Assembly (NCBI RefSeq): GCF_965641715.1
Contig: NZ_OZ282453.1
From: Escherichia coli
Lineage (GTDB): Bacteria; Pseudomonadota; Gammaproteobacteria; Enterobacterales; Enterobacteriaceae
Length of the DNA stretch: 64,000 bases
Direction: 5' to 3' (one strand)
Shown here: piece by piece, positions 14,349 to 17,404 of the stretch
Layout of the letters: every line of letters starts with the position of its first letter
Numbering within the stretch: position 1 is the stretch's first letter
Position numbers and translations under genes: made by a program
Notes under the pieces: model-generated
Told to the model about the DNA's origin: nothing
What the model saw: the letters and a program-made list of their open reading frames with translations, nothing else
Database searches by the model: none

Positions 14349-14861
14349 ATGCAATTAGATGAACAACGCCTGCGCTTTCGTGACGCGATGGCCAGCCTGT
14401 CGGCAGCGGTAAATATTATCACCACCGAGGGCGACGCCGGACAATGCGGGATTACGGCAACGGCCGTCTGCTCGGTAACGGATACACCACCGTCGCTGAT
14501 GGTGTGCATTAACGCCAACAGTGCGATGAACCCGGTTTTTCAGGGCAACGGCAAGTTGTGCGTCAACGTCCTCAACCATGAGCAGGAGCTGATGGCACGC
14601 CACTTCGCGGGCATGACGGGCATGGCGATGGAAGAGCGTTTTAGCCTCTCGTGCTGGCAAAAAGGTCCGCTGGCGCAGCCGGTGCTAAAAGGTTCGCTGG
14701 CCAGTCTTGAAGGTGAGATCCGCGATGTGCAGGCAATTGGCACACATCTGGTGTATCTGGTGGAGATTAAAAACATCATCCTCAGTGCAGAAGGTCACGG
14801 ACTTATCTACTTTAAACGCCGTTTCCATCCGGTGATGCTGGAAATGGAAGCTGCGATTTAA
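14349..14861 (+). CDS. hpaC: 4-hydroxyphenylacetate 3-monooxygenase, flavin reductase component
   Basis: 170-aa flavin reductase-like ORF directly downstream of hpaB. Confidence 0.9.
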   Translation: MQLDEQRLRFRDAMASLSAAVNIITTEGDAGQCGITATAVCSVTDTPPSLMVCINANSAMNPVFQGNGKLCVNVLNHEQELMARHFAGMTGMAMEERFSLSCWQKGPLAQPVLKGSLASLEGEIRDVQAIGTHLVYLVEIKNIILSAEGHGLIYFKRRFHPVMLEMEAAI

Positions 14862-14867
14862 GCTCCA

Positions 14868-14901
14868 GCCCCTTCACGCATTCGTCGAAGGGGCATTTTT
14901 A
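14868..14901 (+). terminator. Rho-independent terminator after hpaC
   Basis: GCCCCTTC-loop-GAAGGGGC followed by ATTTTTATT. Confidence 0.75.
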
Positions 14902-14902
14902 T

Positions 14903-14918
14903 TGTGATCTCAATCACA
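14903..14918. promoter_or_regulatory. Consensus CRP site upstream of btsT
   Basis: TGTGA-tctcaa-TCACA, exact match to TGTGA-N6-TCACA, directly abutting the hpaC terminator. Confidence 0.7.
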
Positions 14919-14946
14919 TATCCACCCGATGAATAATTCTTGCCCA

Positions 14947-14995
14947 ACCGCTCACCGCCATTCCTGACCGCTTACATCCCTAAAATAACCACTCA
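14947..14995 (+). promoter_or_regulatory. Three direct repeats of the BtsR (YehT) motif ACC(G/A)CT(C/T)A
   Basis: ACCGCTCA, ACCGCTTA, ACCACTCA with 12- and 13-bp spacers; motif recalled from yjiY promoter literature. Confidence 0.6.
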
Positions 14996-15253
14996 GTTAT
15001 TTACCTTACTTTACGCGCGCGTATCTCTGGCAACATCACTGCAGGATAGCGGTCAATTTACCTCCTCAAACGCAACGCAAACCTAGAACGGCTTCGGCCT
15101 ATGATTAACAAATTACTCTATGGATTTTGGTTTGCAGGAAGGCAGCAAGTGAGTGAATCCCCGGGAGCTTACAACAGTAAGTGTCAGAGGTGAACGAACG
15201 CAGCTGCCGCACCTGTAAGCCAAAAGACGACGAGTAAAATGCCAGGTTTTACT

Positions 15254-17404
15254 ATGGATACGAAAAAACTATTCAAGCACATACCCTGGGTGATTCTCGG
15301 AATCATCGGTGCATTCTGCCTCGCGGTAGTTGCATTACGTCGGGGGGAGCACGTCAGCGCCCTGTGGATCGTGGTCGCCTCTGTGTCGGTGTATCTGGTG
15401 GCGTATCGCTACTACAGTCTGTACATCGCCCAGAAGGTGATGAAACTCGACCCCACACGCGCGACGCCTGCGGTTATTAACAACGACGGTCTGAACTACG
15501 TTCCGACCAACCGTTACGTGTTGTTTGGTCACCACTTCGCCGCTATCGCCGGTGCTGGTCCGCTGGTTGGTCCGGTGCTCGCCGCGCAGATGGGCTACCT
15601 GCCTGGCACGCTGTGGCTGCTGGCGGGGGTAGTGCTGGCCGGTGCGGTACAGGACTTTATGGTGCTGTTTATCTCCTCTCGCCGTAACGGCGCATCTCTC
15701 GGTGAGATGATCAAAGAAGAGATGGGGCCAGTACCGGGGACTATCGCGCTGTTTGGCTGTTTTTTAATCATGATCATCATCCTCGCCGTTCTGGCGCTGA
15801 TTGTGGTTAAAGCCCTGGCCGAAAGTCCGTGGGGTGTCTTCACCGTTTGCTCAACCGTACCAATTGCGCTGTTTATGGGTATCTACATGCGCTTTATCCG
15901 TCCGGGGCGTGTGGGTGAAGTCTCTGTCATTGGTATCGTGCTGCTGGTTGCCTCTATCTACTTCGGTGGCGTGATTGCTCACGATCCGTACTGGGGTCCG
16001 GCACTGACCTTTAAAGACACCACCATTACCTTCGCGCTGATTGGCTATGCGTTTGTTTCCGCACTGCTGCCGGTGTGGCTGATCCTCGCACCGCGCGATT
16101 ATCTGGCAACCTTCCTGAAAATCGGCGTTATCGTCGGCCTGGCGCTGGGTATCGTGGTGCTGAACCCGGAACTGAAAATGCCTGCGATGACCCAGTACAT
16201 TGACGGTACTGGCCCGCTGTGGAAAGGCGCTCTGTTCCCGTTCCTGTTCATCACCATCGCCTGTGGTGCGGTATCTGGCTTCCACGCGCTGATCTCTTCC
16301 GGTACGACGCCGAAACTGCTGGCTAACGAAACCGACGCGCGTTTCATTGGCTACGGCGCAATGCTGATGGAGTCCTTCGTGGCGATTATGGCGCTGGTTG
16401 CTGCGTCCATCATCGAACCGGGTCTTTACTTCGCGATGAATACCCCGCCTGCGGGCCTTGGCATCACCATGCCTAACCTGCATGAAATGGGTGGCGAGAA
16501 CGCGCCGATCATCATGGCGCAGCTGAAAGACGTTACCGCACACGCGGCGGCGACCGTCAGCTCCTGGGGCTTCGTGATTTCGCCAGAGCAGATCCTGCAA
16601 ACCGCGAAAGACATTGGTGAGCCTTCTGTCCTGAACCGTGCAGGTGGTGCGCCGACGCTGGCGGTAGGTATCGCTCATGTGTTCCACAAAGTGCTGCCGA
16701 TGGCTGACATGGGCTTCTGGTATCACTTCGGTATTCTGTTCGAAGCCCTGTTCATCCTGACCGCGCTGGATGCGGGTACCCGTTCTGGCCGCTTTATGCT
16801 GCAAGACCTGCTGGGTAACTTCATCCCGTTCCTGAAAAAAACCGACTCTCTGGTTGCCGGTATCATCGGTACTGCGGGCTGTGTGGGTCTGTGGGGCTAC
16901 CTGCTGTATCAGGGCGTGGTCGATCCGCTGGGCGGCGTTAAGAGCCTGTGGCCGCTGTTCGGTATCTCCAACCAGATGCTGGCAGCCGTAGCGCTGGTAC
17001 TGGGCACCGTTGTGCTGATTAAGATGAAGCGCACCCAATACATCTGGGTAACTGTTGTTCCGGCTGTATGGCTGCTTATCTGCACCACCTGGGCGCTGGG
17101 TCTGAAACTGTTCAGTACCAACCCGCAGATGGAAGGCTTCTTCTACATGGCAAGCCAGTACAAAGAGAAGATTGCTAACGGTACTGACCTGACGGCGCAG
17201 CAGATTGCCAACATGAACCACATCGTTGTGAACAACTACACCAACGCAGGCCTGAGTATTCTGTTCCTGATTGTGGTGTACAGCATCATCTTCTACGGTT
17301 TCAAAACCTGGCTTGCGGTGCGTAACAGCGACAAACGTACTGACAAAGAAACACCGTACGTTCCAATCCCGGAAGGCGGCGTGAAGATCTCTTCGCACCA
17401 CTAA
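15254..17404 (+). CDS. btsT: Pyruvate/H+ symporter, CstA family
   Basis: ORF 15239..17404; likely start MDTKKLFKHIPW (716 aa); polytopic CstA-type transporter; synteny with yjiX-yjiA. Confidence 0.9.
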   Translation: MDTKKLFKHIPWVILGIIGAFCLAVVALRRGEHVSALWIVVASVSVYLVAYRYYSLYIAQKVMKLDPTRATPAVINNDGLNYVPTNRYVLFGHHFAAIAGAGPLVGPVLAAQMGYLPGTLWLLAGVVLAGAVQDFMVLFISSRRNGASLGEMIKEEMGPVPGTIALFGCFLIMIIILAVLALIVVKALAESPWGVFTVCSTVPIALFMGIYMRFIRPGRVGEVSVIGIVLLVASIYFGGVIAHDPYWGPALTFKDTTITFALIGYAFVSALLPVWLILAPRDYLATFLKIGVIVGLALGIVVLNPELKMPAMTQYIDGTGPLWKGALFPFLFITIACGAVSGFHALISSGTTPKLLANETDARFIGYGAMLMESFVAIMALVAASIIEPGLYFAMNTPPAGLGITMPNLHEMGGENAPIIMAQLKDVTAHAAATVSSWGFVISPEQILQTAKDIGEPSVLNRAGGAPTLAVGIAHVFHKVLPMADMGFWYHFGILFEALFILTALDAGTRSGRFMLQDLLGNFIPFLKKTDSLVAGIIGTAGCVGLWGYLLYQGVVDPLGGVKSLWPLFGISNQMLAAVALVLGTVVLIKMKRTQYIWVTVVPAVWLLICTTWALGLKLFSTNPQMEGFFYMASQYKEKIANGTDLTAQQIANMNHIVVNNYTNAGLSILFLIVVYSIIFYGFKTWLAVRNSDKRTDKETPYVPIPEGGVKISSHH

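Follow-up and report, generated by a model that had tools for sequence, protein, structure and literature searches.

The btsT control region of an Escherichia coli strain: a consensus CRP site, three BtsR-type repeats and an ERIC element in the leader

Results

The hpaC-btsT locus

The window, by which we mean the whole 64-kb stretch of E. coli DNA analyzed here, carries between hpaC and btsT (also known as yjiY) the features that are collected in Table 1. The gene had been called btsT in the first-pass annotation, and this name is confirmed by E. coli genomes that are 100% identical and in which both flanking genes are annotated: the window from 14700 to 15400 matches strain 120899 (NZ_CP025916) at 100% identity, and the genes are given there as the HpaC reductase subunit and as "btsT: pyruvate/proton symporter". 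The start of K-12 btsT (b4354) aligns at position 15254 of the window. A mechanical list of open reading frames begins the gene five codons earlier, at the in-frame ATG 15239-15241, which is found in E. coli and is absent from Citrobacter and Salmonella; because this ATG is not kept in the latter two genera, we take the annotated ATG at 15254 to be the conserved start. In a scan of species-representative genomes, orthologues of BtsT with 90-100% identity were present in 80 species of Enterobacterales.

Table 1. Coordinates of the features found at the hpaC-btsT locus of the window.
Feature	Position	Strand	Remarks
hpaC (4-hydroxyphenylacetate 3-monooxygenase reductase subunit)	14349..14861	+	upstream neighbor; open reading frame list and NZ_CP025916 annotation
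terminator-like hairpin after hpaC	14868..14902	+	stem GCCCCTTC / GAAGGGGC, 11-nt loop, then T-run ATTTTTAT
consensus cAMP-CRP site TGTGATCTCAATCACA	14903..14918	.	exact TGTGA-N6-TCACA palindrome
BtsR-type repeat R1 (distal) ACCGCTCA	14947..14954	+	exact ACCRCTYA
BtsR-type repeat R2 (middle) ACCGCTTA	14967..14974	+	exact ACCRCTYA
BtsR-type repeat R3 (proximal) ACCACTCA	14988..14995	+	exact ACCRCTYA
putative weak sigma-70 core promoter	15000..15027	+	TTTACC, 16-nt spacer, TATCTC; position predicted
small predicted hairpin ACUGC-AGGAUA-GCGGU	15038..15053	+	GGA 15044-15046 in the loop; minimum-free-energy structures
GGC-UUCG-GCC tetraloop hairpin	15090..15099	+	folded in all predictions; conserved
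ERIC/IRU miniature inverted-repeat element, 123 bp	15114..15236	+	termini TACTC...GAGTA
Shine-Dalgarno AGG of btsT	15244..15246	+	7 nt past the end of ERIC, 7 nt before ATG
btsT (yjiY), pyruvate/H+ symporter, 716 aa	15254..17404	+	annotation of identical genomes; K-12 alignment

Both the inverted-repeat listing and the sequence place a terminator-like hairpin after hpaC that stops just short of the CRP site and that probably serves as the terminator of this gene. It was left out by a consensus terminator scan because the scan accepts loops of up to 8 nt. Among E. coli strains, four different genes lie upstream of btsT, namely hpaC, tsr, a hypothetical protein and a FAD-dependent oxidoreductase; the window has hpaC at the place where K-12 has tsr. 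As hpaC also adjoins btsT in Klebsiella, Raoultella, Pseudocitrobacter and some Citrobacter and Enterobacter, the arrangement of the window looks ancestral and that of K-12 derived. A natural btsT knockout was seen in E. coli 20AH011 (NZ_AP043959; locus L007, 3001-3955), in which the promoter and leader are intact and the gene is interrupted, right behind its start codon, by a resistance region that is flanked by IS26 and carries aph(3'')-Ib and aph(6)-Id.

The CRP site

The exact TGTGA-N6-TCACA site that had been claimed for this region is present, and it is the sole occurrence of this pattern in the 64-kb window, where shuffled sequences give an expectation of 0.04. Its distance to the first repeat, described as about 30 bp, holds as an approximation; the measured gap is 28 bp. 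In K-12 (TGTGATATGAATCACA) and in O157 (TGTGATCATCATCACA) the half-sites are kept despite diverged flanks, and in K-12 they stand at the same 44-bp offset. The N6 differs, being TATGAA in K-12 and TCTCAA, the pan-enterobacterial form, in the window. In an alignment of 67 Enterobacterales species, anchored on the CRP-like site, the 16-mer of the window is the commonest form (identical in 19 species) and the half-sites are peaks of information content. Across the 80 species loci obtained from the BtsT scan, (N)GTGA-N6-TCACA sits in most cases 43-45 bp upstream of R1.

Just upstream of R1, homology among E. coli strains breaks down (14919-14946 and the upstream junction), and a CRP palindrome nevertheless stands 44 bp from R1 in all of these upstream contexts, with a different N6 in each. 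The break in homology, taken together with the kept half-sites, points to recombination breakpoints inside the btsT promoter, with selection presumably acting on the CRP half-sites.

Three in-phase BtsR-type repeats

Three copies of ACC(G/A)CT(C/T)A with spacers of 12 and 13 bp had been described downstream of the CRP site, and all three are indeed exact in the window, with start-to-start steps of 20 and 21 bp. On both strands of the window the motif ACCRCTYA has 13 matches (6.2 expected), of which only R1 to R3 are clustered, and three in-phase copies never arose in 1600 shuffled upstream regions. The first-pass annotation had further opposed these three copies to two in K-12. K-12 does differ in the first copy, but what it carries there, GCCGCTCA, is this third copy with a single base changed, which gives one mismatch to ACCRCTYA. 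Neither is the array a peculiarity of this strain: three or more in-phase copies (at most one mismatch each, steps of 20-21 bp) precede btsT at 78 of the 80 Enterobacterales loci and are therefore the conserved norm, and one of the two loci lacking such a chain is a truncated contig. Four in-phase copies occur at 9/80 loci. Neighboring copies are separated by steps of 20 bp in 89 cases and of 21 bp in 22 cases.

The 67-species alignment gives the same picture. All three repeat positions, R1 included, fit the motif with at most one mismatch in 67/67 species; three exact copies were found in 32 of them, and R2 is exact in 60. Information content peaks at R1, R2 and R3, as it does at the CRP half-sites, and is low in the spacers, the value for R1 being comparable to those for R2 and R3. 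Upstream of btsT, no phylogenetic footprint is stronger than those of the CRP-type site and the ACCRCTYA repeats. As a side observation, the length of the repeat array upstream of btsT differs between genera, the four-copy loci (L017, L018, L021, L025, L029, L037, L077, L079 and L083) including Pantoea coffeiphila and several Citrobacter.

Within E. coli, the locus is orthologous to that of K-12, and R2, R3, the spacer between them and the core promoter block are nearly identical, as are the first ~80 nt of the leader; the stretch from R1 to about 15110 is nearly identical in the window, K-12, O157:H7 and five more strains. The window differs from K-12 in R1 itself and in the haplotype of the R1-R2 spacer. 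At R1, FG92-1 and O157 share ACCGCTCA with the window, K-12 and three other strains have GCCGCTCA, and the CCGCTCA core is invariant in the eight E. coli alleles compared, across two spacer haplotypes and four upstream contexts. We counted the R1 haplotypes in 5,426 complete E. coli genomes. The window type (2,250 genomes) and the O157 type (362 genomes) have ACCGCTCA, while the K-12 type (2,029 genomes) and a second G type (667 genomes) have GCCGCTCA. The GCCGCTCA variant is thus found in about half of complete E. coli genomes and three exact repeats in about 44%, so that the latter are about as common as the K-12 variant.

Core promoter and leader

Directly downstream of R3, a block reading TTTACC...TTTACGCGCGCG...CTCTGGCAA is conserved in the 67-species alignment. 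A consensus promoter scan of 14800-15300 returned no sigma-70 promoter, and we therefore infer the core promoter, and with it the true length of the leader, from the position just after R3 and from the conserved TTTACC block: a weak sigma-70 promoter would abut R3, and transcription would start near 15032-15036. The Cappable-seq supplement (PMC4782308) holds no entry for the locus, and a literature search on the yjiY transcription start site together with CsrA gave no match. A published reporter fragment, PbtsT -212/+88 (PMC10653868), is compatible with a length of about 90-100 nt for the K-12 leader. If a start near 15034 is used, the center of the CRP site falls at about -123.5, and a center near -123 would be far upstream for simple class I activation.

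The distance of about 250 nt from the repeats to the start codon had been given correctly (258 nt from the end of R3 at 14995 to the ATG at 15254). As the length of a leader it needs revision, since the predicted promoter is situated after the repeats: transcription would probably yield a leader of about 220 nt, of which 123 bp are an ERIC/IRU element. The leader is long in the window because this element has been inserted, and the length is not intrinsic to btsT. The GCTTCGG core of the tetraloop hairpin is invariant across Escherichia, Citrobacter and Salmonella, and in Salmonella diarizonae the hairpin reads CAGCTTCGGCTG, with one compensatory pair. At the Shine-Dalgarno sequence, CCAGGTTTTACTATGGATA is invariant across genera.

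GGA motifs and CsrA

The leader had also been said to contain several GGA motifs compatible with CsrA binding. Five are present between 15034 and 15260 (at 15044, 15122, 15137, 15164 and 15256), but this is no more than chance would give (4.1 expected, P = 0.40 in composition-matched shuffles) and three of them lie inside the ERIC element; GGA enrichment as evidence for CsrA was rejected on this count. Two motifs are outside ERIC. The one at 15044 falls in the predicted AGGAUA hexaloop, is 30-50% unpaired in the ensemble and is not conserved in Citrobacter or Salmonella; the one at 15256 overlaps the ATG. Both are plausible candidate contacts of CsrA, while the predicted hairpin around the former is a weak candidate for a CsrA site. 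Mapped CsrA sites on btsT were not found in the literature, and we know of none. The leader of cstA is said to be repressed by CsrA. This gene encodes a paralogous transporter that is also controlled by CRP and CsrA (PMC7730263), and the likeness includes one GGA that overlaps the ATG and another in the loop of a predicted hairpin; the btsT leader differs in that GGA is not enriched and that GGA 15044 is not conserved outside Escherichia. BtsT itself is post-transcriptionally controlled by CsrA (PMC5431176, PMC5936718, PMC7730263), and btsT is repressed by LeuO (PMC5431176, PMC5936718).

An ERIC element in the leader

The segment from 15114 to 15236 is an ERIC/IRU element, which had been overlooked in the first-pass annotation. 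Its 123 bp are missing from seven other E. coli alleles, including K-12 and O157. Positions 15153-15174 match the reverse complement of the ERIC1R primer at 20 of 22 positions, and the joined ERIC1R/ERIC2 core agrees with the central 44 nt at 37 positions (the sequences of both primers were confirmed from the literature). A 150-nt stretch with the element behaves as a dispersed repeat: 5425 of 5426 E. coli genomes contain it, with a median of 9 places each. At 95% identity or more it is found in only 2,056 of the 5,426, and a query spanning the whole of hpaC-btsT is covered in 2,065; as these two counts agree, we place the ERIC-filled allele in about 38% of complete E. coli genomes (ATCC 8739 among them), the other 62% being without it. 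Elsewhere in the 64-kb window, no further ERIC copies were found.

Outside E. coli, the btsT leaders of E. albertii and Escherichia sp. E1V33 have the element at this site too (98% identity). Citrobacter portucalensis also has a copy there, which is more diverged, with 79% identity over the central 81 nt and 41 of 44 matches to the primer core, whereas the site is empty in other Citrobacter species and in Salmonella.

As RNA, the element is predicted to form a long, imperfect and self-contained hairpin (-53.1 kcal/mol, z = -7.3). Sequestration of the Shine-Dalgarno sequence by ERIC was rejected: in partition function calculations, the region of the Shine-Dalgarno sequence and the start codon is unpaired with a probability of 0.44 in the filled allele and of 0.46 in an allele emptied in silico.

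Discussion

The region from 14903 to 15253 is the already-characterized control region of a known gene, btsT, in a common allele. The features flagged at first sight belong to this characterized promoter, their assignment to CRP and BtsR was sound, and the value of the present analysis is mainly corrective. The K-12 yjiY promoter reportedly contains a direct repeat for YehT/BtsR together with a cAMP-CRP site, and the motif ACC[G/A]CT[C/T]A is said to form there a two-copy direct repeat with a 13-bp spacer. We take R2 to be the upstream half and R3 the downstream half of this K-12 repeat. The dependence of btsT on its regulators is taken here from the literature: the gene is under the control of BtsS/BtsR and of cAMP-CRP (PMC5431176, PMC5936718), and its dependence on BtsSR extends to Salmonella (PMC9504724). 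Binding by BtsR, and an induction that requires pyruvate and BtsS, are likewise known from published work on K-12 and Salmonella. Two small additions can be made to this. The conservation of three sites in the BtsR operator may never have been stated explicitly before, and the ERIC polymorphism of the btsT leader is minor and, as far as we could find, previously undescribed, our search having returned no paper that links ERIC with btsT or yjiY.

We consider it very probable that btsT is controlled here by a three-repeat BtsR array and CRP at a weak promoter, followed by a leader that a nearly neutral ERIC element has lengthened. In this proposal, the pyruvate-responsive LytTR response regulator BtsR would activate transcription of btsT from three direct repeats that share one helical face, in an array of 20-21 bp steps that would abut a weak sigma-70 promoter, and cAMP-CRP would help activation from the consensus site about 44 bp upstream of R1. 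The three-repeat array with its CRP site would represent the ancestral Enterobacterales architecture, of which the distal repeat of K-12 would be a one-base variant. The mRNA leader would measure about 97 nt in K-12 and about 220 nt here, owing to the ERIC element in front of the Shine-Dalgarno sequence, and the ERIC hairpin would at most alter the stability or processing of the mRNA and not the access of ribosomes.

One part of this proposal that departs from the K-12 description is the occupancy of the third repeat, R1, which we infer from its conservation. One could argue instead that R1 is not a working BtsR site but a relic or a chance likeness, and that only the R2-R3 pair with its 13-bp spacer is bound. 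The published K-12 motif is, after all, reportedly a two-copy direct repeat; a G at position 1 of R1 is tolerated in K-12 and in about half of E. coli genomes, and position 8 is a G instead of an A in 17 of the 67 species. Yet R1 is as conserved as R3 over these 67 species when the flanking spacers are not, its CCGCTCA has stayed constant in the eight E. coli alleles while spacers and upstream contexts varied, and at 78 of the 80 loci it has stayed in phase at a 20-bp step. In addition, the probe published as the YehT site for surface plasmon resonance covers all three copies, so that the authors' own probe contains R1 (PMC4847170). We regard a two-site operator as quite unlikely for these reasons. 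The array also resembles the operators of other LytTR regulators (AgrA at P2/P3, ComE, PlnC/D and YpdB at yhjX), in which direct repeats lie on the same face at steps of ~20-21 bp and adjoin a weak -35; YpdB, for example, binds two GGCATTTCAT repeats cooperatively (PMC4847170). The btsT operator differs from these in that its conserved copies number three, or four in some genera, where a pair is usual, and in having a distal CRP site as part of the conserved module.

A different question is whether the leader does more than the proposal allows. The btsT copy has the length of ERIC/IRU/RU-1 elements, their central conserved inverted repeat, their TA-ended terminal inverted repeats and their long imperfect hairpin, and like them it lies in an intergenic, transcribed location with filled and empty alleles; it differs in diverging from the primer consensus (37/44). 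These elements were reportedly described in 1990 and 1991, and their copies are said to be generally old and mostly immobile passengers. Given the unchanged predicted accessibility of the ribosome-binding region, the self-contained hairpin and the lack of GGA enrichment, we rate the copy in the btsT leader as most likely a nearly neutral, tolerated passenger. Thermodynamic folding may nevertheless miss consequences of ERIC that arise by way of RNase E, of CsrA or of folding during transcription. The element could then be a functional module that alters the half-life of btsT mRNA (through RNase E) or its CsrA-dependent translation, in which case the ~38% of E. coli with the filled allele would differ from K-12 in how they regulate pyruvate uptake. 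It would lie within the predicted 5' UTR, 7 nt from the Shine-Dalgarno sequence, where it contributes three GGA motifs as well as a hairpin of high stability, and it recurs at the same site in E. albertii and Citrobacter portucalensis. In the literature, ERIC is an element of about 127 bp with terminal inverted repeats and TA termini that is co-transcribed and that affects the stability of the co-transcribed mRNA in Yersinia, depending on its orientation (PMC2229807, PMC3184786); the Yersinia copies studied are, however, 3' or intercistronic, whereas that of btsT is in the 5' UTR by the Shine-Dalgarno sequence. Against such a role stand the equal predicted accessibility of the Shine-Dalgarno and start region with and without the element, the GGA motifs inside it, which are mostly base-paired in the stem, and the absence of ERIC at btsT from most species and from 62% of E. 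coli, besides the view of ERIC copies as passengers mentioned above. We therefore find a functional ERIC module possible but doubtful.

Far less credible, in our opinion, is the idea that the long leader is a dedicated cis-regulatory RNA, be it a riboswitch or an sRNA gene, or that it carries a sigma-54 promoter. It is true that the leader of the window folds better than shuffled sequence (z = -2.4) and has a sub-threshold match to the Rfam family V_AS5, and that GG and GC are spaced in the 16-mer at 15028-15043 as they are in a sigma-54 promoter. The excess of folding energy comes, however, entirely from ERIC, the K-12 leader without the element showing no unusual folding (z = +1), and no Rfam family reaches its gathering score, the V_AS5 match being ERIC-like sequence (28 bits against 96). 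The sigma-54 candidate TGGCAACATCACTGCA (TGGCAA-N5-CTGCA, GG-N10-GC) was rejected as a chance likeness, because K-12 (TAC) and other genera lack its -12 GC; moreover, BtsR is a LytTR regulator and not a sigma-54 enhancer-binding protein. A dedicated regulatory RNA or sigma-54 promoter thus appears highly improbable.

A wider reading of the same data would be that BtsR operators of three to four sites are universally conserved with two-helical-turn phasing, and that the ERIC element makes the post-transcriptional control of pyruvate uptake dependent on the strain. We offer this combination tentatively, as something that may hold rather than something we expect. If the three-site operator is true, it would imply the cooperative binding of at least three BtsR protomers at a fixed distance from CRP. 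Work on BtsS/BtsR in K-12 relies on an allele whose distal repeat is degenerate and which lacks ERIC, and as the K-12 allele differs in this way, reporter constructs and conclusions on CsrA or mRNA stability that come from K-12 may not transfer to strains like ATCC 8739 or to many clinical isolates.

Some minor observations concern the ERIC elements themselves. Over the full length of its model (1-129), the Rfam family V_AS5 (RF02818, "Vibrio RNA AS5") can be aligned to two ERIC copies, 15116-15234 of the window and 1365-1481 of locus L019, with 27-28 bits against the gathering score of 96. It seems that what Rfam classes as an "antisense RNA" is a repeat of the ERIC type. The left end of the element in the window holds a 10-codon open reading frame (15120-15152, MDFGLQEGSK*) whose start context CTATGGAT (15118-15125) is identical to that of btsT (15252-15259); the ATG of this frame is absent from the Citrobacter copy. 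In Pseudocitrobacter faecalis (L052, 3843-3937), another ERIC element lies just downstream of btsT.
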